Positions 1,166 through 53,744 of a DNA stretch of 64,000 bases are shown here, piece after piece. Position 1 is the stretch's first letter. Every line of letters starts with the position of its first letter. The DNA comes from Eledone cirrhosa. Taxonomy: Eukaryota. Where the stretch lies: positions 116,250,001 to 116,314,000 of the forward strand of contig OZ024740.1 in NCBI GenBank assembly GCA_964016885.1, written 5' to 3'. The translations under genes were made by a program, and so were the position numbers. Under the pieces are notes generated by a model. The model had not been told where the DNA came from. It saw only the letters and a program-made list of their open reading frames with translations, and did no database searches.

Positions 1166-4100
1166 ATTATTATTATTATTATTGTTATTACTCTTTGAGT
1201 CTCAGTCATTGATGTTAGTTAACTGGAAAGTTTGTTGAGATGAATATCAAGCCACTACCTGCAGCCTCAGATATTCAGGACGTATCGGAAGGTTCTTGCT
1301 GTTCCCAGCAAGCATGCCTTTTGAAGCGTTCCAAAAAGCGTGAGGGGGCCAATTTTCGTTAACCATCCCTGGAAACTTTTTGAGATAGTCCCTAGTGCGC
1401 CTATGACAATCGGGATCACTTTGACTTCATGGCAGTTCCAAATCCTTTTTACCTCCCACTTTAAGTCCTGGTATCGGTTAATTTTCTCCCTCTCCTTCTC
1501 TTGCACTCTCGTGTCGAATGGGCAGGCCACATCCACATTCAGGCACGATCTTTTTTCTTTGTCCAAAACCACCAGGTCAGGTCTATTGTGTTCCAGTTTC
1601 TTGTCCGTCTGTATCCTAAAATCCCACAGCACCTTCACCTGATCGTTGTCTATCACCGCCTCTGGCTTATGCTCATACCACTTCTCAGAATGTGGTAAAT
1701 TGTTTACTTTGCATAGGTGCCAGTGGATCACCCTGCCCATCAGATCATGTCTCCAGCCCTTATAGTGAGTCTGGGCTAGGTGTTTACACTCAGATACAAT
1801 GTGATGCACAGTCTCCTCTCTCTCTCTCCACAGATCCTGCACAGTGGGCTAGCCTCCTCCTTGTAAATGTGGTGTTTCAACCACTTCGTTTTGAGAGCTT
1901 GCTCCTGCGCAGCCATTAGCATTCCTTCTGTAGCCTTTTTAAGGTCTCCTCTTTTCAACCAGTTCCATGTCTGTGGATCTCTAAATTCAGTTTTCTCAAA
2001 GAAGGTACTATGAAGGGATTTTTCCTGAAGGCTGCTCTTTCTCCTTGATGTTATTTCCTCCATGGACATCCCCTGGCCTATTGTCCCCTCCTTCAGTACA
2101 GCTCTGAGCATTGGCTCCTTACTATCAGTCACGTATTTGTGTAGGTTGTTTTTCTCCATCTGAACACAGTCCTCTATGCTGATAAGACCTCTTCCACCCT
2201 CAGATCTCCTTAAGTAGAGTCTATCGACATCACTCCTCTTGTGGAACATATTGTAAATAGTCAATAGCTTCCTAGTCTTCCTATCCATTTCTTTTTGTTC
2301 AGCAGCATTCCATCTCAGAATTCCCGCACTGTACCTAATAATAGACACAGCTCGGGAATTTACTGCACTTATGGCATTCCTACTGTTCAGATGTGACTTC
2401 AATACGCTCCTTATTCTCCGAATGTATTCAGTTCTTAACAATTCCTTCATTTTTTTTTTCTTGATGTCATCAGCCTCCAGAACGCCCAAATACTTGTATC
2501 CTTCTTCAGAGTCAATTTCTTTTATCATCTCACCTGTTGGTATCTGGATTCCGTTACTTCTGCTCAACTTACCCCTCCTCATCACAATGACTCCACACTT
2601 ACTAATACCAAATTGCATACATATATCATTGCTGAAAATACGGACAGTGTCAACAAGCACATCCAACTCCTTCTCACTCTTCCCGAAGAGGTTAAGATCG
2701 TCCATGAAGAGGAGGTGATTGATGGTAAGCCCTCCCTTTCCCAACCTGTATCCTGCTCTCACTTTTCGCAGTACACTGGTCAGGGGCATCAGGGCAAGGA
2801 CAAACAACAGAGGGGACAGACTATCTCCCTGGAATATACCTCTCTTGATCTTCACGCTTCCCAAGGATTCTCCAGTTGATGTTAACTCTGTTTCCCAGGA
2901 CTTCATACTTTTGCCCAACAACTGCCTGATGTTATCTGCCACCTTGAAGATCTCCAGGCTTTTGGTGATCCAAGAATGAGGCACCATGTCAAATGCCTTT
3001 TTGTAGTCTATCCATCCCATGGCAAGAGCAGTGTGTCTCCTCTTGCAATTCCTCATTACCATCTTATCAATAAGTAACTGGTCCTTTGTACCACGTGACT
3101 TCTTTCGGCATCCTTTCTGTTCGTCCGGTAACAAGTTTTTTGTGTGGAGGTGATGGTAGATTTCCTCAGACATAATGCTTGTCAACAGTTTCCACATTAC
3201 GGACAGACATGTGTTATGTCTATAGTTGGTAACATCATTATCCTTGATTCGGTCTTTCATTATCAGAACTGTGGTACCCTTTGTCAACCACTCTGGTACC
3301 CTTTGTCAACCACTCTGGTACCTCACCTGACATCAAGCAGTCATTGAACATGGTTGTCAGTTTCGGGTGGAGGGATGTTATGTTTTTAATCCAATACCCC
3401 TGCACACCATCTGGGCCAGGTGATTTCCAGTTGGTTAGTTTTTTGGCCTGCCCCTTAAGAGTTTCAACTGTGATACTCAAATCAGTTTGTTGGCGTGCCT
3501 GTTCACTGATCTCCTTCTGTACTGTCTCAATCCACACTGCCTGGTCATTATGTTTAACATCCTGATCCCATATTCCTCTCCAGAATGTTTTAGTTTGTTC
3601 CGCCTCGGGGATCAAGTCGTTGCCTCTTTCTTTCCCTTCAAGCTATCCAAACAGCATCTTCTGGTTGTTGTCGAACATGCGGTTCTGTTTATACTAGCTG
3701 ACTCTGTTCTCGTATCGCCTGATTTTTGCACTTTTCGCTACAATGCGTTGTTTCAGTTCCTCTATGATAATATTTAGCTTTTTCCTCCTAGTTTTGTACT
3801 TTATTTCCAGTCTATTTTTAGTGTCTATGTTTTTTAGTGTCCCATTCAGTAGCGACTCAAGCTTTCCAATGTCATTTCTCATTTCCCTGATTTGACCACT
3901 CAGTCGTTTCTTCCACCAAGGCTCTGCTCTTTCTTGTCTGTTGTTTCCTCTCGCTTTTATACCAAGTAGTTTCCTCACCGTATTTGCTGTTGCTTTGAGG
4001 ATATTGTTGCACTGGTGAAGGCTCCTCGCCTCAAGTTATGGGATGATTTTGTTTACCTTAGCTGTTGTTTCTTTTAACTTTTTCCTGTCTACAAATCTTA

Positions 4101-4840
4101 GGTTAATAGGTCTCCCACTATCATTGTTCAATTCATCTACCACTAAGTTTAGGATATCTACCAAATCTTGTCCTAGCCCGTCAGCATTCATCTCCTCAGT
4201 GGCCGTATCTCTGTTCCAGGTATTATTTATCTCAGCATTCAGATCATTGTCTGTTTCGGGTGGTTCCTCCGTTCTCTCGACCTCTTCACCTTCATTTCCC
4301 ACTGGCTCGTTTGCCTGGCATACTCCACCCTCCATCTCCAAGCTAATCTCTCTGCCCAGTTCCTCCAGTTCCAGCTCGCTTATCCACGCATTAGTTCTTA
4401 TTACCCGAGCCTGCCTGGCCAGTTTTTGTTCATCTAATTTAAATGGACCAATCTCGTTCCAGATGTTATGCATCCTTTTCCTATAGCCTTTACCCTTGGG
4501 GTTACTCTTCAGGTAACATTGCATAACAGTTCTATTCAATTCTTTCGTCCAGTTGGTTCTGGTCCCTTTCCTTGTTCTTCTTCCTCCGATACCAGCAGTA
4601 TTTGGTTGACAGCCAGGTCCCTGCTGCTGAGCCAGGGAGCACCTGTTGGGTGAGAGTCTGTCACATGACATTCTAGTCTCCATTTCACCGTTATTCGAAC
4701 TGTTTAGGTTCGACATTTAAACACTCTTATCGAGGATTGGCGAATGTATGGTTACATAACCACCGGTGAATTACTTGTCTCCGGTGGTTTCGTCACTCCA
4801 CGTGACTTTTGTGTGGCATTATCACGCTGTAGACGAACCC
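1166..4840 (-). mobile_element. R4/Dong-clade non-LTR retrotransposon, near full length, decayed
   Basis: Single broken ORF with RT and C-terminal CCHC/RLE; 3' UTR ends in (TAA)n at 1166-1190; its 3' part nearly matches the copies at 21950-23330. Confidence 0.9.
1267..4716 (-). pseudogene. R4/Dong RT-RLE polyprotein, frameshifted into ORFs 4716-4036, 3978-3694, 3615-3238, 3287-1776, 1842-1267
   Basis: KSPGPDG, WIDYKKAFDMVPH, IFQGDSLSP, HLLFMDD, YKYLG; CRICG..ETVHHIVSEC; RHD; RPDLVV..DVACP..EKINRY. Confidence 0.9.
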
Positions 4841-5047
4841 AAACAAACAAACAAACAGGCAGAAAAAAACCCCAAAATGAATAAGCATAAGTTTCATTGT
4901 AATGTAGTGTTTGAATGTCTGACTTAGTTTTTCCCTTCCCTTCTCTGTCCGTCCGTTTGTTTTTCTCTTCATTTTTATTTCCTTTACGTTTTCGTTCGTT
5001 GTTGCTGTGCTGCTTTGATTTTTATTTATTTTTTTTTTTTTTTTAAT

Positions 5048-6349
5048 TTTGACCGGGTCATCAATTCAGTCTATTTATATATTTTGATGTTTTCCTCTTT
5101 TAGTGGGAATTCTACAATTTAGCAGCGGATAGCGGGAGAGAATAGCGGCGGTAGTGATACTGAGGCAGCGGCGGGAGGGGGGGGGGGCTGTGCTAGCAGC
5201 AACTAGCAGGAGGTAGTGGGAGGGAATAGCGGCGGTAGCGATAGTGAGGAAGCGGTGGTGGTGATGTGGTCGTATTACTGTAGTGATGGTGTTGAAGTTA
5301 GAGTAGAAATTTGAGTCGACTTGACCAGAGTTTTCATCGTGGTAGTGGTGGTGGTATTGGTGGTGAAATTATCTTTAGTGAAATTATCGTTAGTCGCGTA
5401 TATGTGTTGACATTTACCCATAATATTGGGGTTAAACATTTTGTTAAAACTAAAACTTGATTTAGATTATTGTTTTTTTTTTATTTTTATTTTGATCGGG
5501 TCATCAGTTCAGTCTATTTATATATTTCGATGTTTTCCTCTTTTAGTGAGAATTCTACAATGTAGCAGGGGGTAGCGGGAGAGAATAGCGGCGGTAGTGA
5601 TATTGAGGCAGCGGCGGCGGTGGCGGTGCTGTGCTAGCAGCAACTAGCAGGAGGTAGTGGGAGAGAATAGCGGCGGTAGCGATAGTGAGGCAGCTGTGGT
5701 GGTGATGTGGTCGTATTACTGTAGTGATGGTGTTGAAGTTGGAGTAGAAATTTGAGTCGACTTGACCAGAGTTTTCATCGTGGTAGTGGTGGTGGTATTG
5801 GTGGTGAAATTATCTTTAGTGAAATTATCGTTAGTCGCGTATATGCGTTGACATTTACCCATAATATTGGAATTAAACATTTTGTTAAAACTAAAACTTG
5901 ATTTTGATTATTGTTTTTTTTTTTTGTTTTTTTTTTATTTTGATCGGGTCATCAATTCAGTCTATTTATATATTTCGATGTTTTCCTCTTTTAGTGAGAA
6001 TTCTACAATGTAGTAGGGGCTAGCGGGAGAGAATAGCGGCGGTAGTGATATTGAGGCAGCGGCGGCGGTGGCGGTGCTGTGCTAGCAGCAACTAGCTGGA
6101 GGTAGTGGGAGAGAATAGCGGCGGTAGCGATAGTGAGGCAGCGGTGGTGGTGATGTGGTCGTATTACTGTAGTGATGGTGTTGAAGTTGGAGTAGAAATT
6201 TGAGTCGACTTGACCAGAGTTTTCATCGTGGTAGTGGTGGTGGTATTGGTGGTGAAATTATCTTTAGTGAAATTATCGTTAGTCGCGTGTATGTGTTGAC
6301 ATTTACCCATATTATTGGAATTAAACATTTTGTTAAAACTAAAACTTGA
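5048..6349. repeat. ~445-bp tandem repeat x3
   Basis: Units begin TTTGA(C/T)CGGGTCATCA at 5048, 5491 and 5938; highly similar bodies. Confidence 0.9.
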
Positions 6350-9026: not shown

Positions 9027-12000
9027 ATGACCTCACTCAGAATAGGCAGCATAAATGCGCGTGGCTTGGGGTCGTCATGGAAGCAGGGCCACCTGCTCAA
9101 CGACCTCAGGTCACTAAACATAGATGTAGTGGCCATCAGCGAGACCAGAATCTCCAAAGCACGGGCCTTCGCACCGATCTTCGGCGGCTACGATGTGTAC
9201 GCATCTCCCAGCCGTCCGGGATCGGGGGGAGGAGTTGCTGTGCTTTTTCGGAGAGGTTTGGATCTTGCCCAGAAGGTAAGTTGGTGGTGCTGGACGTGAC
9301 TAGCGGAGAAGGGCGGCATGATTTCTTCCGGCGTCTGGAGACCTTTCTTGGAACGTCCCGCTCTTTAGTGTTAGTGGGCGACTGGAACGGGATCTTAGAT
9401 GCACGCTGGGATTGTGTGGGATTAGTGGATAGGGAAGGAGGGTGCAAGAGTCTCACCAACCTGCTCAGGCGTGTTGAACTGTCTGACAGGTACCGAATGG
9501 ATTTCCCGAATGTACCAATGTGGACTTGGACAAATCGCATAGGGTCATCCAGATCATATCTAGATAGAGTATTTTGTAGGGAAATAGATAGGTCTAGCAT
9601 AGGCTGTGCACAATTCAAGATAGTCAGCTACACGGACCACAAATTCGTGATCTGTGTGCTTGACTTAGATAGGCTTCATAGACGAGGACCCGGCTACTGG
9701 AAGCTAAACGCGTCCTTACCAGCGCGCAAGGCCTACAGAGACCGGATTAGCGAACTAGTTAAGCGGGCGTTGACGGGGGCCATCGTCAACAACAAGTGAT
9801 GGTTTGCTCTGAAAAGAGCAATTAGAATAGAGTCCATTAGGTTTAGTAAGGCTTTAGCAATAGAGAAAAATAGAGCAGAGGGAGAATTAGTTAGAAAATT
9901 AGACGAGGCGCTTAGCAAAGGCATTGCGACCGACGTGCTTGCGGCGAAATTAGCCCTTGACCAATTCTTCAATGCAAAGCACGAAGGCTGCGTTGTCAGA
10001 GCTAGGGTGCGTGCTCTCAGACACGAGGGGACGAAAGCCGTTCAATGGGCCCGAGTGGCGGAGGCGCGTCGTGGCAATAAAGCCACGATCCGGTCTTTGG
10101 TGGACCACGACGGGCGCATGCTACTCGATCCCGGGCAAATGTGTGAAGCTTTTCAGCGACACTTCGTTCAACTGTTCGGGGGCAGTGGCGGGCCGGATCG
10201 AGGGATGGACTTTAGTGTCTACCTCGATGGACTGCCGCGGCTTTCGGCCACTGAGGCGGAGTGTTGCAAAAAGCCGATAACAACCGCTGAAGTACGGGAG
10301 GCAATGACTGGCTGCACAAGGGGTAAATCGCCTGGTTTAGATGGTCTGCCCTATGAACTTTACGTACAAATGCCAGACTTTTTCGGAGGCCTCTTGGCGG
10401 ACGTCTACTGCAACTGGCAACAGAACGGGAGAATTCCCAGCTCTGTGAGCCGAGGAGCGGTGGCGCTGCTGAGAAAGTATGAGAACAAGGGGGATAACAT
10501 AGATAATTTTAGGCCCATAACTCTGCTAAACACAGAGTTCAAGATTTTGGCCAACGTGCTAGCAAAGAGGTTGGCGCTTGTCGTTGGTGGTTTGGTGGCA
10601 GAGGCACAGACATGCGCCATTCCCGACAGATCCATCCACGACAACCTCCACCTCATGCGATACATCGTAGAGAGGGTAGCTAGGGAACCTGGCACGGATG
10701 GGTCTTTGATCAATTTAGATCAGTCGAAAGCCTTCGATAGGGTCGACCATCGTTACCTAGCGGCAGTCCTGAGGGCGGCTGGCTTTGGGCCCGTCTTCAG
10801 AGGCTGGATCGCTGCCATGCACAGCGACATCTGCTCTGTAGTGAGAGTGAACGGTCACCTTTCGGAACCGTTTAACATCATGCGCTCGGTCCGCCAAGGA
10901 TGTCCCCTCTCGTCCCTCTTGTACGTATTGACTCTCGAGCCATTACTGCACAAACTGGAGACGTTGAGGGGAGTCCCGCGCGAACTACGATGCGGAAGAT
11001 CCGTGTCAGCATATGCGGACGATGTCACCGTAGTGGTGTCGAACGCCAAACACATCGAGGCGATCGGCACTACACTAAGAGAATACGAAGCGGTGACAGG
11101 AGCAATGATCAACCAGGAAAAGTCAGTGGGCCTGCAGCTCGTCACCTGGAGAGGCAGGTCCATGCCGTCCAACAGCGTCGTCGGGCGCTGGACGGACGGA
11201 CCGGTTAAATTGCTAGGGGTCTGGTTCGGTCCAGACCTCCAGACGGACAAAAACTGGGACGAGGTGACGAGCAGGGTGGCTTCTCTCACCCAGAAATGGG
11301 CGGAGAGGAAGCTATCCCTGAAAGGTCGAGCGGAGGTGGCTAACGCGTACATCGCGTCCGTCATCTACTACCGCCTGACCGTCGTACCTTGTCCTAAGCC
11401 CCGCCTGACTGCGCTGGAGCGTTTGCTCTTTCGCTTTTTGTGGAAGGGACGTGCTCCGATGGTCAGGCGGTCCATCTGTTGTCAACACCCGCTACGTGGA
11501 GGGCTGGGTATGCCGTGGCTGATGATGCGCAGGCACGCGCTCAGGCTACGACATCTCCACCTCTTCCTCGACGGTGATCAGGTGTGGTCGCCGTTTGCTA
11601 GACACGTTTTTCCCCAGCTCGTCTCCTTGACGGAGCTGCAGTCCTGGGTCAAGCGAAGACCAAGAGGGAGCGCCTGGAGACTGGAATGTCTTCAGGCGCT
11701 CACAGCCCTCGACCAATCGGGCAATGTGATCGGTGGAAACTCCACCTCGGCGTTCTATAGAGGATTAGTGGAGGGTAAGAGCGACGACGTACTTGGGGAA
11801 ACTCTAGGCGTCGACGAAAATCAACTAGCCAATCTCTTCGGAAGAACTTTCGGGCCAGGGCCTATGGACAACTTCCAGAAATCTCTGGCTTGGCAGTGCT
11901 ACCGAGGAACCTTGCCAGTTCGGTATAAACTCTACAGGCATGGAGGTGCCGTCAGCCGGGCATGTCCGAGATGCGCGCAGGGCGACGAAACCGTCCTGCA

Positions 12001-12380
12001 CGCACTCGTCCAGTGTCCGAAAATTGCTGACTTGTGGGTTTATGTCGAACACCTGCTGTCGCGTTTAGGACGGATCCAGCTATCAGCTGAGTCCATCGTG
12101 AGGATTGCCCCGCCCTCCTCCTTTTGCCGGGAAGGGCAGGCAGTTTTTATCTGTCTGGTGGCCATGGCGAAAGAGATAGTATGGTGGACACGTTTGAAAG
12201 GGCTGAAGACGAACACTTACCTCTTCGGTGATGCTCTGATTGACTTTTTCAAATTTCATTTGAAAAGGAAAATCAGGGTAGAGAGGGAAGTGCTCTCTTC
12301 CCAGCATTTTGTTGAAAGATGGGTGAGATAAGCAAAAATGGCCCGAGTGAATGAGCCTACTCTGAGTATATATCTGTAAA
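9027..12380 (+). pseudogene. Tx1 ORF2 (AP endonuclease + reverse transcriptase + C-terminal zinc motif)
   Basis: SINARGL..VAISETR, GDWN, SYLDRVF, TDH, YWKLN; KSPGLDG, DQSKAFDRVDH, RQGCPLS, AYADD; CPRC..ETVLHALVQC; frameshift ~9270, in-frame stops at 9797 and 12329. Confidence 0.92.
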
Positions 12381-12999: not shown

Positions 13000-13084
<85 letters not shown>

Positions 13085-13087
<3 letters not shown>

Positions 13088-13268
13088 AACGAGTAGGACC
13101 CCGACGGCTGTGCTCAAGCCGTTTCGACGGCTAACAGAATTAGCCGTCGAAACGGCTTGAGCTCAGCCGTCGGGGTCCTACTCGTTCCTATTACCCACTC
13201 TACTACCCTAAGTATTGAGTACTTTGGTGCGTTATGGTCCGCCTGGTTCCTTACCACATTTCCTTCGT
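13085..13268. mobile_element. Family B short element with fold-back palindrome and HHR 3' half
   Basis: gacggctaa-cagaa-ttagccgtc-GAAA-cggct..agccg-TC-ggggtcc; related copy at 33545-33685. Confidence 0.7.
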
Positions 13269-13354
13269 TATATATATATATATATCAGTTGATTCAGGTT
13301 AAATATATATATATATATATTTCACTAAAGACGTGTATATATATATATATATAT

Positions 13355-14063
13355 ATAAACGGAAAAAATGAAACGAAATTTCATTTCTCACTCTTAGTAC
13401 GGCTGTTACTTAAATATAGGTATGTATACGTACATACATATATGTATACAGACGTACAGTAGTATGTATATATACATACATGCACACATATATATATGTA
13501 CGTATGGTCTCACCTAACATTTATTATAATGCTCGGTGTGTTTGTAAACACATCCATACGTACATATATATATGCATGTATGTATATATATATACTACTG
13601 TAAGTCTGTATACATATATGTATGTAGGTATACATACTTATATTTAAGCAACAGCCGTACTAAGAGTGAGAAATGAAATTTCGTTTCATTTTTTCCGTTT
13701 ATCGTTTTCGGTACCCCGGCCGATTAACTCACTCGATATGCAAATTAGTCTGCTCAGCCGTTAATATGCATAAGGAAAGTATATACTTTCAGACGTTCAA
13801 CCATCTGGTAGGAAGGTATACGTTGCTGACGATAGCTAATAAGCTTGAAACTAGTACAGGGTTCCTTTGTCAGTGTTGAACAAATGAGCAACGATAGTTG
13901 CTAGACACTGTACGGCTTAATTCGGGATGTTTGTTTACAAACACACCGAGCATTATAATAAATGTTCGGTGAATCCATACGTACATATATATATATGTGT
14001 GCATGTATGTATATATACATACTACTGTACGTCTGTATACATATATGTATGTACGTATACATA

Positions 14064-14068
<5 letters not shown>
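13355..14068. mobile_element. Family C ~420-bp HHR element: 1.2 head-to-tail units plus an inverted partial arm
   Basis: Direct repeat 13552 vs 13973; inverted arm 13355-13550; homologous to 53162-53690. Confidence 0.85.
13821..13860 (+). ncRNA. Type I minimal hammerhead ribozyme (family C)
   Basis: cgttg-CTGACGA-t-agct-aata-agct-t-GAAA-ctag-TA-cagg. Confidence 0.75.
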
Positions 14069-14132
<64 letters not shown>

Positions 14133-14268
14133 AGAAAGTGAGGGTTTTTTTACAAACCAAAAATAACCGGTGTCCTACACAAGTGAAAGTATAATGAAAA
14201 AAAGATGAAATCGAAAATGCAACTGGTGTCTTATTTTAAAAAAATATATATATATTTATTTACTTGGT

Positions 14269-14308
14269 TCCTTTACCGGTTTCGCAGTTCTTCTGCTTTT
14301 CAAAAGTA
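14269..14308 (-). ncRNA. Degenerate hammerhead motif
   Basis: Reverse complement: ctt-TTGAAAA-gcag-aagaa-ctgc-GAAA-ccgg-TA-aag; two core substitutions. Confidence 0.5.
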
Positions 14309-14699
14309 GAGTTGAGATGGAGGTTTTTCTCACATCTGGTTGGTCTTTGAATGTTACTTGTTGTATATGGAAAAAAGTGGCTCGAAAGGCCAGGTTTTTA
14401 GAGAAGTAATTTGATTGGTTGGTCAATAATTATAATAAATTTCGCGCCAGTTCGCGTTACAAAGTTCTTCACAAACAAGGGGGGGGGGGGCTCAGGTTGT
14501 TTTTTCATATATGAGTGTTTGAATTTCTTTTTACTTAAAAAAGGGGGCTCACGATGGCTTTTTTTTAATAAACGTAATTTGATTGGTTATAAATGAAATT
14601 ATCTCTGTCACGTGAACAAGTTTTCATTAAATTTCGCGACCTTATTTGGAAATCTATTCTGTAGCCTTTTTAGAGAATTTTATGACAAGCAAAAGATAA

Positions 14700-15606
14700 T
14701 TATTTCTAATTTAGGCACAAGGCCAGCAATTACCCAGTGCATTACTGGTACTTTATTTTATCGACCCCCTAAGGATGAAAAGCAAAGTCAACCTCGGCGG
14801 GATTTGAACTCAGATCGTAAAGGGACGTAACTATGTTGGAAAGCATGGCGTCCGACCCTCTACCGATACTGCCAATCCACGGCCGACAAGCAAAAGATAA
14901 TGGTCAAGAGAAATGGGATGGGAGAATTGTTCTGGTTCAGTGAATATGGTTAGTTCGCTGGAGAGTCAGAATTCAGATTTTCTTTTGAAATAAAGAATGT
15001 AAAGATATGTATGTTTATTTGTGTGCTTGTGTGTCAGTATCGGTAAAGGGTCGGACACCATGCTTTGACGCATAGATTTACGCCCCTTGCCATTCTGAGT
15101 TCAAATCTCGCCGAGGTTAACTTTGCCTTTCATCCTTGCGGGGTCGATAAAATAAAGTACCAGTAACGTACTATGGTCGATTTACTCGAATTGTTTTCCT
15201 CCAAAATTGTTTGTTTTGTGCCTAAATCGGTAGAAAGTTGGACAGCATAGAGTTACAGCTCTTTACAGTCTGAGTTCAAATCCCGCCGAAGTTAACTTTG
15301 GCTTCATCCTTACGGGGTCGTTAAATTAAAGTACCAGTAATGCACTGGGGTAATTTCTGGCCTTGTGAAAAATGTAGAAGCAATTATTATAGGTGGGTAG
15401 ATTGGCAGCATCGACAGGGCGTAGGACAACATGGTGTGTAGAATAGAGGTACGGCCCTTTACGTTCTGAGTTCAAATCCCTTCGAGGTTAGCTTTGTCTT
15501 TCATCTTTATGAGGTCGATAACGTAAACCACCAGTAATGCACTGGATCGATTTAATCTACTTTCTCCTATCCTCAAATTTGTTGGCTTGTGCCTAAATCA
15601 GAAACT
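14700..15606. mobile_element. Cluster of four copies of an abundant tRNA-derived SINE (one -, three +)
   Basis: Shared GAGTTCAAATCCCGCCGAGG (B-box-like) and TTTCATCCTTACGGGGTCGATAAAATAAAGTACCAGT body. Confidence 0.8.
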
Positions 15607-21009: not shown

Positions 21010-21916
21010 CCTTTGACACAAGTGTGCAAGAAAAGGAGAAAATTAACCGATACCAGTATTTAAAGAGGGAATTAAAAAGGATGTCCAAGGATGGTTAAAG
21101 AACATTAGTCCAGCCCTTTTTTTTTAACACTTCAACGGGCATGATTTCTGGGAACAGCCAGTAGCCTCCGATACGTCCTGAATATCTGTGGCTGCAAGTA
21201 GCGGCTTGATGCTCATTTGAACAAACTTTCCAGTTTAATAACGTCGATGACTGAGAGTCCAAGAAAATAAAACCTAAACAGGCATGACAGAGCTGCACAA
21301 TACATACATTGGATAATGTGTAAGCATTTTCACCTGCCCCATCAAAAGAATTGGTGGGAGCATCAACCACCTCCCGTACTCGAAAAAGATCACATCTCAA
21401 TCTTGTGGAACTTTAGCATCCAAACATACCGAAAAATAGATGCAAATAGACCTGATATAATACTGAAGGACTTTCAAAAGAGGGTATGCCTGCTAATTGA
21501 TATGTCCGTTCCAATAGACAATAATGTATCAATAAAAACATTTGAAAAATTGAGCAAGTATAAAGACCTGGAGATAGAAATTGGAAAAATATGGAAGTTG
21601 AGAACTAAAACAATACCAGTGGTTGTAGGCGCTTTAGGAATGATACATAAGGGGGCCTTATGATTACTTATCCCAAATCCCAGGAAACCCGCGTATAGAA
21701 GAAATTCAAAAGATAGTACTAATGGGAACTGCCCATATACTAAGGAAGATTCTGTCAATATAAGTACATCACAAGTCTAAACACCCAAAGATACATGTGT
21801 GTGTATATATGTTCTTTCTTGAACATGGCGGACCTTGTTGTCTCTTGAGGTCACTAGTTGTGACTTGGTGATAACTCGTATGAACATAAAGCAAGATAAA
21901 TGCAATAATAATAATC

Positions 21917-21956
<40 letters not shown>

Positions 21957-24020
21957 AAGTGGGAGGTAAAAAGGATTTGGAACTGCCATGAAGTCAAAGT
22001 GGTCCCGATTGTCATAGGCGCACTAGGTACTATCTCAAAAAGTTTCCAGGAATGGTTAAAGAAAATTGACCCCGCCACGCTTTTTGGAACGCTTCAAAAG
22101 GCATGCTTGCTGGGAACAGCAAGAACCCTCCGATACGTCCTGAATATCTGAGGCTGCAGGTAGTGGCTTGATATTCATTTCAACAAACTTTCCAGTTAAC
22201 TAACATCAATGACTGAGACTCAAAGAACAATAATAATAATAGGATAGGATGACTAGGAAGCTATTGACTATCTACAACATGTTCCACAAGAGGAGTGATG
22301 TCGATAGACTCTACTTAAGGAGATATGAAGGTGGAAGAGGTCATATCAGCATAGAGGACTGTGTTCCGGTGGAGAAAAACAACCTACACAAATACGTGAC
22401 TGATAGTAGGGAGCCAATGCTCAGAATTGTACTGAAGGAGAGGACAATAGACCATGTCCATGGAGAAAATAACAACAAGGAGAAAGAGCAACCTTCATGA
22501 AAAATCCCTTCATAGTACCTTCTTTGAGAAAACTGAATTTAGAGATCCACAGACATGGAACTGGTTGAAAAGAGACCTTAAAAAGGCTACAGAAGGAATG
22601 CTAATGGCTGCGCAAGAGCAGGCACTCAAAACGAAGTGGGTGAAACACCCTATTTACAAGGAGGGGGCTAGCCCACTGTGTAGGATCTGTAGAGAGAGGA
22701 GACTGTGGCTCACATTGTATCCGAGTGTAAACACCTAGCTCAGACTCACTATAAAGGCTGGAGACATGATGTGATGGGCAGGGTGATCCACTGGCACCTA
22801 TGCAAAGTAAACAATTTACCACATTCTGAGAAGTGGCATGAGCATAAGCCAGAGTCGGTGATAGAAAACGATCAGGTGAAGATGCTATGGGATTTTAGGA
22901 TACAGACAGATAAGAAACTGGAACACAATAGGCCTGACCTGGTGGTTTTGGACAAGGAAAAAAGATCGTGCCTAAATGTAGATGTAGCCTGCCCATTTGA
23001 CACGAGAGTGCAAGAAAAGAAGAGGGAGAAAATTAACCGATACCAGGACTTAAAGTGGGAGGTAAAAAGGATTTGGAACTGCCATGAAGTCAGAGTCGTC
23101 CCGATTGTCATAGGCGCACTAGGTACTATCTCAAAGAGTTTCTAAGGATGGTTAGAGAAAGTTAGTCCAGCCCCGCTTTTTGGAACACTTCAAAAGGCAT
23201 GCTTGCTGGGAACAGCAAGAACCCTCCGATACGTCCTGAATATCTGAGGCTGCAGGTAGCAGCTTGATATTCATTTCAACAAACTTTCCAGTTAAATAAC
23301 ATCAATGACTGAAACTCAAAGAACAATAAAAATAATAATAATAATAATAATATAGCCAATGTTGTCTCAGAATGCTCGCAAATGAATACAAAACTTGGAG
23401 ATATGATAAAGTGGCAGCAGTAATACATTGGGGATTATGTAAAAAGTTTGGGTTCAACTGTAATGGAAAATGGTATGACCACTTTGTAACAAAAGATATG
23501 AAAGTACTGGAAAATGAAGAAGCCAAATTTCTGTGGGAAATTAATATGATAAGATTTATATAAACGGAAACAAAGATTGATCACAACAAAGACATAGTTC
23601 TGATAGTCAGGAAAGAAAGAAAATGTTTTATTATAGATGTAGCATGTCATTTTGACACGAGAATAAAAGATAAATAAAAAGAAAAGAAAAAACTACTCCA
23701 ACGATCTCAAATATAAAGTATTGAGGGGTGAAGTTAATAAGGTAATATTGGTACCAATAATTATAGGTACCCCTGTGATGTGTAACATACAATCTTACAA
23801 AGATTTGCAACAAATTGGATTTGATATTGGTATAGAGGCTGTACAATAAGCATGCCTACTTGGCTCTGCCAGAATAATTAGAAAGGTGATGGATACCACC
23901 TAGAAGATTAAAAAGCAAATCTTATCATCTTAAGCTCTGAGATGAGGCCTGATGGTAAACAGAAAAATACCGGTAGTTAACATCTCAACACTGGGCAATG
24001 ATAAAGATAACATTTAATAA
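21010..24020 (+). mobile_element. Stack of five 5'-truncated R4/Dong 3' ends
   Basis: Pieces at ~21010-21230, 21260-21900, 21950-22230, 22241-23330 and 23355-24015 carry RLE C-terminal motifs (RPD, KY.DL, PIVIGALG); the last four each end in (TAA)n. Confidence 0.85.
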
Positions 24021-28398: not shown

Positions 28399-29885
28399 TG
28401 GTTCTTTATTAGCCACAGGGACACAAAAGAAGGGGACAAATACAAAGGGGGGAGTTTACATACAATAAAAACGTGCAAAATACTATCACAAATGCAATTT
28501 AAAAATTAATCGATTTTCCCCAATAGGGGGAGACATTACATATGGGTAACACATACCCCCGAAAACATGTGCAACCCTCATCTCTAGGAGTACGAAGAGT
28601 GAGTACGCCTTTCCTATCTTCCTCTTTTCCCTCAAACTACAGGCTGAACTACATTCACTCGGGCCATTCTCGCCACTTTTACCCACCTTTTATAAAACTT
28701 GCTGGGGTACAGCACCTCTCTCTCCATCCTGATTCTTCTTCCAAAGTCAACCATACAACCTCTTTCGCCATAACTATCACACAAAGGAAAACCGCCTCTC
28801 CTTCATTTTTGAAGGAGGGTGGCGGTTTGATCATGATAATGGACTCGGTGATCAGCCGGATTGGTCCCACCCGCGACAATAGTCGTTCTATATAGCCCCA
28901 CAGGTCGGTAACGCCCGGGCAGTGTGCAAATGCGTGCGCGACGGTTTCTTCGTCTCTCACGCATCTCGGCGAGATCTTTTTCGAAGGGTTCCTGCCCGGG
29001 TGCCCGTGTCTGTAGAGCTTGTCTCGAACTGGTAGAGGTCCTCGATAGCACTGCCAGGCCAGGGATTTTGGAAGTTGTCCTTCGGTCCTGGGCAGAAGGT
29101 CCTACCGAACAGACTGGCCAGTTCGTCTTCCTCTACGACTAGAGTTTCTCCGAGCGCGTCGTCGCACATGCTGCGGACCAACCCGCTATAGAATAACGAA
29201 GTGCAGTCTCCACTGATCGCCGGGTCCGCCTGCCAGAGGGCTGTGAGCGCCTGAGCGCATTCGATGTGCCAGTCGCCCATTTTCCTCGGTCTTTGCTTGA
29301 CCCAGGACTGCAGCTCGGTCAGCGAGACGAGTCGTGGGAAGGTTCGCCTCACGAACGGAGCCCACACCGGTTGCCCCGTGAGGAATACGTGGAGATGCCG
29401 CAGCCCGAGCGCGTGTTTGCGCATCGTTAGCCACAGCATCTCCAGCCCTCCGTTGGAAGAGTGTGGCAGCAGATGGATCTTCTCACCAAAGGAGCCCGCT
29501 TCTTCCAAAGGAATTGGAAGAGCGCGCGCTCCTTTTTGGTGAGCGTTTTGGCTGGACAAGGCACGACGGTCAAGCGGTAGTAGATGATGGACGCTATAAA
29601 AGTGTTCGCCACCTCCGCTAGACCTTTCAAGGATAGTTTGCACTCGGCCCACTTCTGGGTGGGTGCAAACACTTTGGCCGTCACTTCGTTCCAGTTCTTC
29701 TCCACCTGGAGGTTCAGACCAAACCAGACCCCGAGCAGCTTCACCGTTCCTTCCATCCAGCGTCCGACGATGCCATCGGAAGGCATCGGTTTGCCTCTCC
29801 ACGATCCGAGTTGAAAACCGATGGACTTGTTCCGGTTCAGCTTCGTTCCTGTGAACCTTTCGTATTCCTTCAGTAAGGTGCCGAA
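28398..29885 (-). mobile_element. 5'-truncated Tx1-clade LINE ending in (TATC)n
   Basis: VKLLGVWFG..LSLKGLAEVANTFIASIIYYRL, ETVAHAFAHC, paralogous to the ORF2 C-terminus at 11150-12300; AATAAA then GATA repeat. Confidence 0.9.
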
Positions 29886-30051
29886 GTTCTTTGCTTAAAC
29901 TTTAATCTGTTCTTATAATAAATATTTTCTCTACGGGATTATATATATATACGTGTGTGTAATAGTAGCTATGGTGCTTCCATAAGCGATATGCCAAAAT
30001 TAGCACTCAATATTCATACAGAGCAGAGTGTGAATAATATAAAAAAACGAA

Positions 30052-30857: not shown

Positions 30858-30893
30858 TCTTAACGTTTCGGATGCTAGTCCTTCATCAGAAGA
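30858..30893 (-). ncRNA. Minimal type I hammerhead motif (PLE type)
   Basis: Reverse complement: tctt-CTGATGA-a-gga-ctagca-tcc-GAAA-cg-TT-aaga. Confidence 0.75.
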
Positions 30894-32055: not shown

Positions 32056-33021
32056 GCATATGTATATGTACGTACAAACACACATATACACGCAGATACA
32101 CACATGAATACATAAATACACACATGTATGCACGCATGTACGTATATGTACGTGTATGTTATGTTTGTATGTGTACATATATATATATATGTATGTATGC
32201 ATATGTATATGTAGCATACATGTGCGTATTTATGTATGCATGTGTGTATGTGCGTGTTATTAAACCTTGTTATCTTTCATTTGTGGCCCCTAAAAGCCCC
32301 TATACCCTGTTGCACCTCAGCTTTCCCTAATTTCACCTGTTTTCGTCATTTGTTACTTGTCACACACCACACACACCACTAAACACATCTACTACACACA
32401 CACACACTATATCATACACATATAGTTACATAAATGCATACATATACACTATATACATACATACGTGCTTGCAAACATACATACATAAATGTATATATAC
32501 ACACATACACACACTTACATTTACACACATTTACATACGTACACTTACATTTACACACATATACACACGCACACACACGCGCATCATAGACACAAGGGCC
32601 TACGGCAGTTTAGCTCGGTTGTGCCAGCTATGTAAGGTATTTCAATCGTCCCAGCTATGTACTATATCACTTCTGGCGATATATTAAAGTCACTACTGCT
32701 GCTTTCCTGTCGCTAGACCTTTGTTGCTACTCTTTTTACTTACTGCCACTGCAACTAGTGCTGCTGCTGCTGCTGCTGTTGTTGTTGTTGTTACTCTCTC
32801 TGTGAAAGGCCTTTGGACACATACACACACACATATATATATATGTGTGTGTGTATACACATACGTATACTTATCTATCTATCTATCTATGTATATATAT
32901 ATATGTAAGTATGTATGTATGTATACGTACATACATATACGTATACATACATACATACTTACATTTAAGTAAGTGCCGTACTAAGAGTGAGAAATGAAAT
33001 TTCGTTTCATTCTATTCCATC

Positions 33022-33101
<80 letters not shown>

Positions 33102-33226
33102 GGAGATGAGTTTTATTGTAGTACAATAAAGCAATGCAGATATCGCATAAGAAGCACTCTACAGTTTGTAGGACTGGAGTATACATAATATATAAGAACA
33201 AAAGATGGTTAAAAGAGTTCCATGTA

Positions 33227-33293
33227 TTTTATTATGCGCATTTCAAAAACAAATATCATCATGCAATAATATTTGTGTTTTCATCAGATAAAA
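33227..33293 (-). ncRNA. Type I hammerhead ribozyme (family K)
   Basis: Reverse complement: ttttat-CTGATGA-long stem II-GAAA-tgcgca-TA-ataaaa. Confidence 0.88.
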
Positions 33294-33418
33294 CAGGAAA
33301 ACATGATATGAAGGTTAAAAAACACTTGTGGATAGTGCAGTTTTAATATATGTTGATATGTTGATTTAAAACTGCACTATCCACAAGTGTTTTTTAACCT
33401 TCATATCATGTCTTCCTG

Positions 33419-33485
33419 TTTTATCTGATGAAAACACAAATATTATTGCATGATGATATTTGTTTTTGAAATGCGCATAATAAAA
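33419..33485 (+). ncRNA. Type I hammerhead ribozyme (family K)
   Basis: ttttat-CTGATGA-aaacacaaatattat..atgatatttgttttt-GAAA-tgcgca-TA-ataaaa. Confidence 0.88.
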
Positions 33486-33544
33486 TACATGGAACTCTTT
33501 TAACCATCTTTTGTTCTTATATATTATATATATATATATATATA

Positions 33545-33685
33545 TCGAAGGAAGTGTGGTAAGGAACCAGATGGACCATAACGCACCAGAGTACTCGATA
33601 CTTATGGTAGTAGAGTGGGTAATAGGAAAAGAGTCAGGACCCCTACGGCTGAGCTCCGGCCGTAGGGGTCCTGACTCTTTTCCTC
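33545..33685 (-). mobile_element. Family B copy with fold-back palindrome
   Basis: Reverse complement of 13155-13268; palindrome aggaaaagagtcaggacccctacggc..gccgtaggggtcctgactcttttcct. Confidence 0.75.
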
Positions 33686-42763: not shown

Positions 42764-42800
42764 ATATAAGATCAAAAGATGGTTAAAAGAGTTCCAAGTA

Positions 42801-42867
42801 TTTTATTATGCGCATTTCAAAAACAAATATCATCATGATATGATATCTGCGTTTTCATCAGATAAAA
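42801..42867 (-). ncRNA. Type I hammerhead ribozyme (family K variant)
   Basis: Reverse complement: ttttat-CTGATGA-aaacgcagatatcat..atgatatttgttttt-GAAA-tgcgca-TA-ataaaa. Confidence 0.85.
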
Positions 42868-42970
42868 TAGGGATACATGATATGAAGGTTAAAAAACACT
42901 TGTGAATAGTGAAGTTTTAAATCAACATATTTTGCATTGCTTTATTGTGCTACAATAAAACTCACCTCCT

Positions 42971-43021
<51 letters not shown>

Positions 43022-43160: not shown

Positions 43161-43222
<62 letters not shown>

Positions 43223-43293
43223 AAACCCGGGGTAACCACAGTAAATAAGGTACTCAATACATAGCAGAGTATAAATATTTAATATAGAAATGG

Positions 43294-43340
43294 CTTCTAC
43301 AGGACTAGAACTGTTTCATTCGGGAGAAATCATCAGGAAA
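43294..43340 (-). ncRNA. Type I hammerhead ribozyme (family G)
   Basis: Reverse complement: tttc-CTGATGA-tttc-tccc-gaat-GAAA-cag-ttctagtc-ctg-TA-gaag; family also at 28154-28268, 35620-35770, 51413-51583. Confidence 0.75.
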
Positions 43341-43433
43341 TGTTCACATATATATGTATATATACATCGATCTCATTTTATATATATATATATTAAAATA
43401 ACATATTTTAGTCTTCACATTTATTATTGTTAC

Positions 43434-49420: not shown

Positions 49421-49569
<149 letters not shown>

Positions 49570-49599
49570 AACAAAAGATGGTTAAAAGAGTTCCATGTA

Positions 49600-49666
49600 T
49601 TTTATTATGCGCATTTCAAAAACAAATATCATCATGCAATAATATTTGTGTTTTCATCAGATAAAA
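49600..49666 (-). ncRNA. Type I hammerhead ribozyme (family K)
   Basis: Same motif as 33227-33293. Confidence 0.88.
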
Positions 49667-49794
49667 CAGGAGGACATGATATGAAGGTTAAAAAACACTT
49701 GTGGATAGTTCAGTTTTAAATCAACATATTTATATGTTGATTTAAAACTGAACTACGCACAAGTGTTTTTTAACCTTCATATCATGTCCTCCTG

Positions 49795-49861
49795 TTTTAT
49801 CTGATGAAAACACAAATATTATTGCATGATGATATTTGTTTTTGAAATGCGCATAATAAAA
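49795..49861 (+). ncRNA. Type I hammerhead ribozyme (family K)
   Basis: Same motif as 33419-33485; right arm of inverted pair 49565-49990. Confidence 0.88.
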
Positions 49862-50010
49862 TACATGGAACTCTTTTAACCATCTTTTGTTCTTATATAT
49901 TATGTATACTCCAGTCCTACAAACTGTAGAGTGCTTCTTATCCGATATCTGCATTTCTTTATTGTACTACAATAAAACTCACCTCCTACATATATATATA
50001 TATATATATA

Positions 50011-50777: not shown

Positions 50778-51492
50778 CTGTGTCAGTGTGTGACTGTGTC
50801 AGTGTGTGAATGTATGTATGTGTGTGTGGATGCATGATTTAGAAATTAGCTTTGCAGCCAGGTGGTCCTGGTTTTGATCCCACAGTATGACATCTTGAGC
50901 TGGTGTATTTTACAATAGCATGGAAACAAACACACACGGATACACGCTCAAACATACACAGGAGCGCGCGCACACACACACACACACACACTCACACGCA
51001 CACTCATATATTTATTTATTTATTCATAAGCGTTGGTGATCGCCAGAACGAGAATTCTATACCATAGTAGAGATTACTGGTCCAAGGAAACAAGCTACTG
51101 GATCAGCCTTAATAAACTCTATATATAGTGCAGTGTAAAAGGTCTGTGGTGCACACACGCACACTAACATATAACTGGTAGTCGTTCATTATGTCATATT
51201 TGCATCTGCAAATTTCCTCTCTAAGGCGCAGGCCTCTCAACACCAACACTTACCCGAGCATGCCAGTATCTCTTTTCGTCGAGATTGTTCAACGAAAAGG
51301 AAAGGGTTTTATACAGCTCGTCAACAGGTGCAGATCTATGGTCTAGCTAGATATATTAGGATCTTAGATGAGTGTGTGTATGTGTGCCCCTATATATATA
51401 TATAAAGTTTATCCTGGGTTCAATCGGGGGGTAACCACAGTAAGTAAGGTACTCAATACAAAGCAGTGTATAAACGTTTAATATAGAAAAGG

Positions 51493-51536
51493 CTTCTACA
51501 GGACTAGAACTGTTTCACTCGTGAGAAATCATCAGG
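51493..51536 (-). ncRNA. Family G hammerhead, stem I 5' strand lost at the inversion junction
   Basis: Reverse complement CTGATGA-tttc-tcac-gagt-GAAA-cag..ctg-TA-gaag; inverted arm 51541-51583. Confidence 0.65.
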
Positions 51537-51741
51537 TCCTGAATGAAACAGTTCTAGTCCTGCAGAAGCCTTTTCTATATTAAATATATATATATGTACA
51601 TGTGTGTGTGTGTGTGTGTATGTGTGTAAAAGCTGAAACAGCTTGGCGCCGCAGTCTAGATTTTACATATCTTTATTATACCCACTCTGCTTATTCCCAT
51701 GGATCGAGTACTCTCATGATTAGTGGTCTCAGCTCCACAAA

Positions 51742-51789
<48 letters not shown>

Positions 51790-53161
51790 TCATCACACAC
51801 AAACTTTTGTGTGTGATGAGTCTATATCAATATCTAATATATATTTCTAGATACTATTTCATTATTTAGAATCACCAAACCACAACATAAAATCAAATAA
51901 TATTGTTGTTTATTTTCTTTACTCAAACATTTTCCAAATTAACCTATTTATATATAATTATCTACTTTAATTACCACTAATTAGCACTAATTATCAAATT
52001 TACACGGAATGGTAACATTTTCACCTTTTTACTGGAAAGTAAATATTCATCAACAATAGCCAATTTCAATGAAAGTAAAAACAACTCCCGCAAACTGTTG
52101 GCCATATCAAGCGCTCGTTATGTCTCTCTAAAATCTGTCTGGAGAGTACGATACATAGAAAGAGAAACTAAGCTTACTTCAATGGTAGATGAAGAAACCA
52201 GATCTTAAATAGGTCTCAATGTTAATCATGGGCAGGACTCAATGTAATAACGATGAACAGGAATAAATGGAGGAAATATTGTTCATGACATTTTATACAC
52301 TGCTGTAAGCGGAAATAACGATTTGGCATAGTAAATAATGAATATTCAGTTATAGTCTGGTCGGTATGAAATACTGGAGAGGAAATTTATATTTTTAATC
52401 TTAGTCAAAGAAAAAAACGCAGAGTACTTTACCCTTTCCCGGCTTTATGGGACTAGTGACAGGGCTGAACGTATTTTCAGAGTGGAAACCGTACCAAAAT
52501 ATTTGGAACGGCGCTTAGCCTGTTAAAGGTATCCGAAAATATGACTAAATCACTCAAATGCGATGCCTCAGCATGGTCGCAGTCTAATGACTGAAACCAG
52601 TAGAAGAGTAAAGTATGTGCGCGCGTGTGTGTGAGAGAGAGAGAGAGAGAGAGAGTCGGGATTCTGCACAATTTCTGCTTATCAATTTTGCTTACAAGGC
52701 ATCGGTCGACCGAGTGTGCAGTGTCGATCAGTAGCAGTAGCGAAGCGAAAGTCTTAATCACATAGTTATACCTAATCACTCCTTCCAAAAAACTGCGTGG
52801 CATTATACCTCACTTAGAAAACATATTGTTTGCTCAATATATAGATAGAAGAGTTAAAGACTAAACTATGTTTCCATTTCGGATACCATCTGCCGGTCAC
52901 AATTCCTAGTAGAAAAAGGTGGAACACATATAATTCGGTCAGTTACTACAAAGTAACTCGCCCGACAAATGAACAAGAGGACAAAACCATTAATGCAGAG
53001 AACGGTCAGCAATACCCACTGCATCTGCCATTCCACCCCGCGGGGCTCGTTTCTCAGGCGTGATGCCCACCTATCGATTTGGCGGGGGAAAACAGCAGTA
53101 GCCCGGATACCAAGAATTTGTTTTGTTAATCTTGGCATTTATTAGAGGAAATTATATATAT

Positions 53162-53687
53162 ATAAACGGAAAAAATGAAACGAAATTTCATTTCCCACTC
53201 TTAGTACGGCTGTTACTTAAATATAAGTATGTACACGTACATACATGTATGTATACAGACGTACAGTAGTATGTATATATATATATACATACATGCACAC
53301 ATATATATATGTACGTATGGATTCACCGAACATTTATTATAATGCTCGGTGTGTTTGTAAACAAGCATCCCGTATTAAGCCGTAGTGTCCAGCAACCATC
53401 GTTGCTCGTTTGTTCAACACTGACAAAGGAACGCTGTACTAGTTTCAAGCTTATTAGCTATCGTCAGCAACGTATACCTTCCTGCCAGATTGTTGAACGT
53501 ATATACTTACCTTATGCATATTAACGAGTGAGCCCAATTTGCATATCGAGTGGGTTAATCGGCCGGGTGCACCGAAAACAATAAACGGAAAAAATGAAAC
53601 GAAATTTCATTTCCCACTCTTAGTACGGCTGTTACTTAAATATAAGTATGCACACGTACATACATATATGTATACAGACGTACAGTA

Positions 53688-53690
<3 letters not shown>
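53162..53690 (-). mobile_element. Family C ~420-bp HHR element, 1.26 head-to-tail units in (TA)n
   Basis: ATAAACGGAAAAAATGAAACG at 53162 and 53581 (period 419). Confidence 0.88.
53431..53473 (-). ncRNA. Type I minimal hammerhead ribozyme (family C, intact)
   Basis: Reverse complement: acgttg-CTGACGA-t-agct-aata-agct-t-GAAA-ctag-TA-cagcgt. Confidence 0.85.

Positions 53691-53744
<54 letters not shown>

Follow-up and report, generated by a model that had tools for sequence, protein, structure and literature searches.

A family of ORF-less 420-nt candidate retrozymes in Eledone cirrhosa with a PLE-like insertion footprint

The window analyzed here is a stretch of 64,000 nt from the microsatellite-rich, 3.0-Gb genome of Eledone cirrhosa, and it carries three copies of a repeat of about 420 nt, of which the third is older and truncated (Table 1). 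Positions in the repeat are given as u, numbered along the reverse complement of window 53162-53580 (419 nt). Copy 1 consists of one full unit and ~110 nt of the preceding unit, with 96% identity over 133 nt at a period of 419. Since a long (TA)n tract borders it on the 5' side and a short one (53153-53161) on the 3' side, copy 1 lies inside a TA tract. In the main arm of copy 2, the starting bases reappear 421 nt downstream. Both copies read through a common junction (..CCGTTTAT joined to YGTTTTCGG..), located between 53581 and 53580 in copy 1 and between 13702 and 13703 in copy 2, and in both the 3' end is a TTAT that merges into (TA)n. The first-pass annotation had described a ~420-bp unit present head to tail in more than one copy at two loci, with one hammerhead, no credible ORF and 3' ends at TTAT sites running into (TA)n, and each of these points stands: a single type I motif was found in each of these two copies, and the longest ATG ORF encodes 51 aa. 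This ORF is of low complexity, and no longer ATG ORF was found inside a homogeneous array of the unit. It had also taken the main arm for the whole of copy 2; the stretch is real, but an inverted arm on its 5' side was overlooked, and copy 2 is thus a two-arm insertion.

Table 1. Positions in the window of the 420-nt repeat and its parts
Feature	Position	Strand	Remarks
Copy 1	53162..~53690	-	single-arm insertion of 1.26 units (u~310-419, then u1-419); ends at the long 3' site
Complete unit, u1-419	53162..53580	-	419 nt
'Tail', u361-419	53162..53220	-	~59 nt, bounded by the two 3' end sites (short and long)
Type I hammerhead motif, copy 1	53431..53473	-	core and stem anatomy; predicted cleavage after A53437, between 53437 and 53436
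(TA)n	53690..53739	.	5' side of copy 1
Copy 2, main arm	13552..14068	+	u259-419, then u1-360; short 3' site, in (TA)n 14066-14127
Copy 2, inverted arm	13355..13555	-	u211-419; ends at the long 3' site, in (TA)n; its 5' end joins that of the main arm
Hammerhead motif, copy 2	13820..13862	+	one stem I pair broken (G-G)
Third, older copy	32860..33024	+	5'-truncated, u262-419, 78% identical; long site, in (TA)n

The unit as a whole shows strong predicted self-pairing (z = -8.2), to which a TA-rich hairpin at u258-358 contributes part, and the tail contains a predicted 9-bp hairpin immediately upstream of the long site. Elsewhere in the window, LINE-type remnants occur at 1267-4716 (-), 9800-12331 (+), 28679-29901 (-) and 21271-23145, with frames of 843 aa and 509 aa that both contain RVT_1, the former also zf-RVT. 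A 448-bp unit is repeated three times in tandem at 5014-6349 (94% matches), and no hammerhead motif was found there.

On the minus strand, from 53473 to 53431, the hammerhead of copy 1 reads ACGUUG CUGACGA U AGCU AAUA AGCU U GAAA CUAG UA^ CAGCGU, with the caret at the predicted cleavage site. Stem I comprises 6 bp (ACGUUG/CAGCGU) around a CUGACGA..GAAA core; stem II comprises 4 bp (AGCU-AAUA-AGCU) with U.U at its base (positions 10.1-11.1); and stem III is a single A-U pair with a palindromic CUAG loop, the sequence ACUAGU being self-complementary. A 33-nt pattern of this hammerhead has 9,643 exact matches in the genome and its reversed control has 0, which argues that the motif does not occur by chance. 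Searches of the window with Rfam returned no match of any kind at the gathering threshold and no hammerhead among 49 matches at E<=10; these 49 sub-threshold matches were mostly microRNA models on the TA-rich hairpin and were judged to be chance. The assignment therefore rests on motif anatomy and covariation. For the latter, six related sequences were aligned, a sister family among them and the others spanning 97% to ~73% identity; in this small set, 5 of the 12 pairs are altered on both sides, and all slid controls gave far lower values. Moreover, one stem I pair occurs as U.G, A-U or G.U in 84, 24 and 8 copies, respectively (commonest otherwise-identical forms, 209 motif contexts), and the core is intact in two relatives found without selecting on it (loci L086 and L238). 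At the level of the alignment, these compensatory changes show that the hammerhead has been kept under selection.

The isolated hammerhead folds no better than shuffled sequences (z = -0.4), as expected for a stem III of only 1 bp. The U.U at 10.1-11.1, which is present in five of the six aligned relatives, and this short stem predict weak cleavage. According to the available excerpts, hammerheads of this kind are poor as monomers and cleave as dimers (Cervera and de la Pena; PMC4209133; PMC7229834). A co-fold of two copies paired through stem II and did not form the double hammerhead, so the putative dimeric form is drawn from the palindrome and the literature only. As copies 1 and 2 each carry a single hammerhead, neither could release a monomer by itself.

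The ends of the family were mapped at 80 distinct loci, taken from the first 100 motif matches along contig 1 (86 loci, of which six duplicates were dropped), giving 125 arms. Since this sample was picked by an intact hammerhead motif, short copies are under-represented in it; low-identity palindromic echo matches were removed. At the mapped loci, the arms are made of the unit alone, which is 419-422 nt long with one motif each, and the LTR layout is absent. The 3' ends fall into two hotspots ~59 nt apart, a short site at u350-368 (50 arms) and a long site at u404-419 (55 arms), with 20 ends elsewhere. An (AT)4 lies within 24 nt of 86 of the 105 hotspot ends and of 6 of the 20 others. The 5' ends scatter along the unit, and 2 of the 125 lie within u135-155 around the cleavage site; 19 appeared to lie near u1, of which 14 run on into the preceding unit and five stop at the inversion point. 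Thus, of the circularly permuted endpoints expected in the first-pass annotation, the scatter was confirmed for the 5' ends, but 3' ends sit at two fixed internal sites in 105 of the 125 arms; its proposal that copies were primed on TA tracts is supported by the proximity of (AT)4 to the hotspot ends.

The u419-to-u1 junction is crossed at 53 of the 80 loci, and at least two hammerheads are read through in 17 of the 125 arms, at 17 of the 80 loci. Array sizes range from <1 to ~36 units, and arrays reaching ~9 identical units hold no ORF. Genome-wide, the exact 12-nt junction between the long site and u1 lies upstream of 3,558 of 4,764 exact matches to u5-26, a share close to what 2-3% divergence alone predicts, and junctions between the short site and u1 number 0. 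The template was therefore continuous through the u419-to-u1 junction. Evidence of this kind backs the earlier claim of reverse transcription from a circular or multimeric, i.e., more-than-unit, RNA. Two alternatives were rejected. Template jumping at an RNA 5' end fixed at u1 is countered by the lack of a true 5'-end pile-up there and by the 0 short-site junctions. A cleaved linear monomer is countered by the distribution of ends around the cleavage site, where 2 of the 125 5' ends and none of the 3' ends lie.

Insertions with two arms, joined 5'-to-5' with their 3' ends outward, were found at 35 of the 80 loci. When both ends lay at hotspots, one arm ended at the long and the other at the short site in 24 of 24 pairs (13 of 37 pairs with an end outside the hotspots were left out). 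Over four non-redundant locus sets, the same pairing was observed in 61 of 63 cases (p = 4e-16 against 50%; 22 of 85 pairs with a non-hotspot end were left out), the exceptions being one long-long and one short-short pair. A further 13 loci read by eye gave seven long-short pairs and one long-long pair, and copy 2 in the window obeys the rule as well. Target duplications are not readable inside (TA)n; in two non-microsatellite targets, 12-bp duplications flank the insertions at L270 (AAAACAAAAATA) and L004 (TTTCTTACTTAA). With u46-58 and u256-366 masked and L184 left out on account of local duplications, 34 of 193 rare non-CpG variants were common to both arms of an insertion, compared with 1.3% in shuffled pairs (maximum 4%). 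Part of this sharing is subfamily signal; it nevertheless supports a common template source for the two arms. The omitted locus L184 (G000:C1:19617000-19626900) holds four two-arm insertions in 7 kb, in two near-duplicate pairs, probably through local segmental duplication.

The combination of two 3' sites, paired arms and duplications has the form of the 'tail' footprint of Penelope-like elements (PLEs), and it points to a PLE reverse transcriptase/endonuclease, an agent absent from the first-pass annotation. As far as the excerpts of these studies describe it, PLEs carry a tail on one of two inverted pLTRs and make 8-10-bp duplications (PMC3846280); tails, inverted copies and a (TA)n bias are likewise reported, Naiad PLEs also targeting (TA)n (PMC8557442). 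For a PLE from anole, the protein was found to cut and extend both target strands and was predicted to be a dimer, and two internal RNA start sites for reverse transcription bound the tail (PMC11167929). On these grounds, mobilization of the family by a PLE is considered highly probable. A satellite-like or LINE-mobilized repeat, spread by DNA duplication or by ordinary target-primed reverse transcription from the 3' end and bearing an incidental hammerhead-like motif, could account for the DNA-level expansion of some arrays, and would be in keeping with the LINE reverse transcriptase ORFs in the window and the lack of a hammerhead match in Rfam. However, satellite spread and LINE copying primed at poly(A) are at odds with two internal 3' sites divided one per arm (61 of 63), with inverted arms whose tails point outward and with the covariation in both stems, and this origin is scarcely credible.

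A PLE would thus be expected to act on the repeat in trans, and candidates are abundant. The genome contains 10,595 GIY-YIG candidate places, a sample of which revealed open frames of up to 938 aa with a reverse transcriptase followed by GIY-YIG and a CxxxxCxxC-type linker. These frames we take to belong to the Neptune clade, on the basis of clade motifs and of PMC8557442. From the 75 places sampled, 73 gave a translated segment, yielding seven families and one spurious match; in several of the Neptune-type families the 3' UTR contains a hammerhead of its own and the element ends in (TA)n. The choice of a Neptune-type PLE as the putative motor is based on abundance, TA targeting and these clade motifs, although (TA)n is a target of Naiad PLEs too. 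No homology was found between the unit and the 3' UTRs of the seven families at the 75 sampled loci, none of which has the unit as a terminal repeat; it is present at 3 of the 75, away from the ORF and at 73-85% identity. In the window, 14056-15040 (-) is an 86% identical fragment of the 3' UTR of the Neptune-type family represented at L076; the fragment carries a U3-A8 variant of the hammerhead core and ends in the (TA)n tract of copy 2.

These data also bear on the idea that the unit itself belongs to an autonomous PLE, as its pseudo-LTR or 3' UTR, the copies being 5'-truncated partial tandems. Tailed partial tandems as well as inverted structures are indeed formed by PLEs, whose pLTRs contain minimal hammerheads (PMC4209133 and PMC8557442, in the excerpts available), several Neptune families of this genome have hammerheads in the 3' UTR, and the GIY-YIG survey covered just 75 of 10,595 places. 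Nevertheless, no sampled arm runs upstream into an ORF; arms that pass u1 enter u419 instead, the unit's own junction precedes 3,558 of the 4,764 u5-26 matches, and arrays extend to ~9 identical units free of ORFs. At the three PLE loci that contain it, the unit is distant from the ORF and diverged. This reading is accordingly held to be very improbable, and the family is best described as a PLE-mobilized sequence in behavior, not as an autonomous PLE, given that the unit encodes no ORF with a telomerase-like reverse transcriptase and GIY-YIG endonuclease.

A further question concerns the form of the template, for which variants private to single, young two-arm insertions are informative. At L183, where arms of 3.9 and 5 units are nearly identical, ends included, u66A>T occurs in all nine units of both arms, and all eight genome matches to a 38-nt pattern with this variant lie in that insertion. 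Similarly, at L271 (4 + 1.2 units) a private variant is present in every covering unit, with five of five matches inside the insertion. Such a pattern arises when the change in one RNA unit is copied throughout, as a circle would give; a source array on the other haplotype may, however, be absent from the assembly. In a third instance, L255, the private-variant test failed: the variant was found in 39 units at many loci and was discarded as evidence for a circle, because a homogeneous array could have been the template there. Across insertions, 17 rare variants occur in all covering units and 37 in some, of which 18 come from L096 and L182; variants in some units cross arms at L115, L182, L186, L189, L191, L194 and L195. 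Those shared by only some units point to heterogeneous templates or gene conversion. The arrays at L096 and L182 are of the form (AB)n with terminal units that differ from the repeated pair, so that long arrays alone do not prove rolling-circle copying; together with the diverged array of ~36 units at L251-L252, they are consistent with growth after insertion. A dimeric circle suggested by alternating periods of 420 and 422 was rejected on the same terminal units, which fit unequal crossover after insertion.

Thus, PLE-driven insertion from a linear, uncleaved transcript of a multimeric array has to be weighed, with a hammerhead that acts slowly or occasionally and arrays lengthened afterwards by unequal crossover. 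Post-insertion expansion is real at the arrays just named, variants present in a subset of units occur across arms, and the L255 variant is also found in a 9-unit array elsewhere, a possible source. The weak stem III and the U.U pair are in line with such a template, as is the report, in the excerpts available, that uncleaved RNA was the main substrate of the anole PLE in vitro and hammerhead cleavage was dispensable for insertion (PMC11167929). What speaks against it is that the L183 and L271 haplotypes fill all covering units on both arms and are absent elsewhere in the assembly, that the 8.6-unit arm of L270 is the longest to bear its variant among all 39 matches, and that compensatory changes indicate a hammerhead under selection. 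A linear multimer is consequently regarded as unlikely. A circular template is supported, although not proven, and would, if a PLE mobilizes the family, be the fairly probable one.

Taken together, the repeat is probably an ORF-less, 420-nt non-LTR retrozyme mobilized in trans by a Neptune-type PLE, with a circular monomeric RNA as the likely intermediate. Under the proposed mechanism, loci with at least two hammerheads would be transcribed, and the 1-bp stem III and the palindrome ACUAGU would let two hammerheads pair as a dimer and excise a monomer, which a host ligase would circularize. The PLE protein, probably as a dimer, would bind the RNA near the tail and introduce nicks ~12 bp apart in the two strands of an AT-rich target. 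From each nicked strand, cDNA would then be primed at one or other of the internal start sites, perhaps aided by microhomology of 3-5 nt (TAT/TATAT), and each reverse transcriptase would travel a variable distance round the template, from a fraction of a unit to about nine units, before 5'-to-5' joining of the pair of cDNAs. Failure or loss of one arm would account for copies with a single arm, copy 1 being an example. Put more specifically and more tentatively, one PLE dimer on a single 420-nt circle may make two coupled rolling-circle starts, at the long and the short site, with cuts ~12 bp apart. We consider this version possible, although somewhat doubtful. If true, it would explain the tail, inverted arms and tandems of PLEs together, and would provide direct genomic evidence that the circles of animal retrozymes are PLE substrates.

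The first-pass identification of a retrozyme is upheld by the ORF-less unit, whose length falls in the ~150-450 bp range of such tandem units, the type I motif and the ~10^4 dispersed monomers and multimers, and on sequence-level characters, which agreed in all tests, this is a new family of non-LTR retrozymes. As described in the accessible portions of two studies (PMC7229834; preprint 10.64898/2026.07.22.740005), metazoan non-LTR retrozymes of coral, mussel and axolotl are also ORF-less tandems of a few hundred nucleotides with low GC; they likewise have one type I hammerhead per unit, thousands of monomers and multimers, self-pairing and co-resident PLEs. The hammerhead resembles HHR_Amex1 of axolotl in its 1-bp stem III and palindromic tetraloop, and HHR_Amex2 in having U.U as the basal pair of stem II. 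In contrast, two fixed 3' ends, long and short inverted arms and (TA)n targeting are found here and are not described for metazoan retrozymes in those portions. Furthermore, Repbase elements, almost exclusively PLEs, are matched by 24 of 57 Xenopus families, according to the portions available, whereas no homologous autonomous pLTR was found here.

With endonuclease-positive PLEs (Penelope/Poseidon, Neptune and Naiad), the family shares partial tandems, 5' truncation, an inverted 5'-joined arm, an optional tail on one arm, AT-rich or (TA)n targets, ~10-bp duplications and a small type I hammerhead, as the excerpts present them (PMC11167929; PMC3846280; PMC8557442; PMC4209133). It departs from these elements in lacking an ORF, the whole element being the repeat, and in a tail of ~59 nt compared with 30-40 nt; unlike in the pLTR-ORF-pLTR layout, the tandem goes on indefinitely in the same unit. 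Plant LTR retrozymes are also non-autonomous and hammerhead-bearing, and circular RNA has been proposed as their reverse transcription template (excerpts of PMC7229834 and 10.64898/2026.07.22.740005). However, their hammerheads are of type III and lie in LTRs, and they possess a primer binding site, a polypurine tract and 4-bp duplications; in the present family the motif is type I, the LTR layout is lacking and the duplications are 12 bp long.

Since the class of element is already known, the value of the family lies in evidence of mechanism, and it offers unusually direct genomic evidence for PLE mobilization of a retrozyme, as judged from its insertions. A dependence of animal retrozymes on PLEs was proposed earlier (PMC7229834), and Li et al. 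argued for the link from ribozyme type, co-occurrence and pLTR phylogeny (2026, 10.64898/2026.07.22.740005), both as given in the excerpts. PLE biochemistry has identified two start sites, with coupling between strands not shown in the portion available (PMC11167929). Thousands of copies of this very young, short and ORF-less family are available, and the footprint can therefore be counted. It bears on two open questions, how animal retrozymes move and how the tandem, inverted and tail structures of PLEs originate, and gives specific predictions for the in vitro PLE system, namely strand-paired start sites and the use of a circular versus a linear template. A search of the literature, largely outside subscription journals, found no description of this family, of a PLE-tailed retrozyme or of a count of long-short pairing; supplements and Repbase or Dfam entries may hold the family.

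Several subfamilies can be distinguished. The youngest (L250, L256-L259, L262 and L270) is 99-100% identical between loci, with 1,719 exact matches to a 41-nt motif; it is possibly still active and might provide a minimal template for integration that copies a circle and targets (TA)n. Older subfamilies (L086 7784-9001, where the period is ~511; L234 1799-2424; and L057) are 73-86% identical with an intact hammerhead and show, from their divergence, a long family history. A sister retrozyme family at L238 3585-4500, with a period of ~466, is represented by a two-arm insertion; it has the CUAG loop and the 3' hairpin of the unit, but its stems are different, with a canonical G-C as the basal pair of stem II. 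In addition, pieces of the unit occur at low depth in sequencing runs labelled organisms B and C.

The window contains other small elements. A palindromic two-arm element in (TA)n, at 13083-13270 and ~33540-33680, has a tail of ~80 nt on one arm, and its end recurs beside L031, L052, L053 and L123; no hammerhead was seen in these truncated copies. Isolated hammerhead-like core matches lie at 30889 (-), 48342 (-) and 55844 (-). A third hammerhead-like family, at ~51400-51590 and ~43220-43360, carries a short motif (CUGAUGA..GAAACAGUUC), and its copy at 51.5 kb consists of two inverted arms between TA tracts, one with a longer end. Finally, a second hammerhead-bearing family, inserted in (TA)n, occurs at 33098-33530, 49568-50010 and 42770-42990; two of its copies stand back to back as arms, and a single arm bears a tail of ~95 nt, again a long and short pattern.
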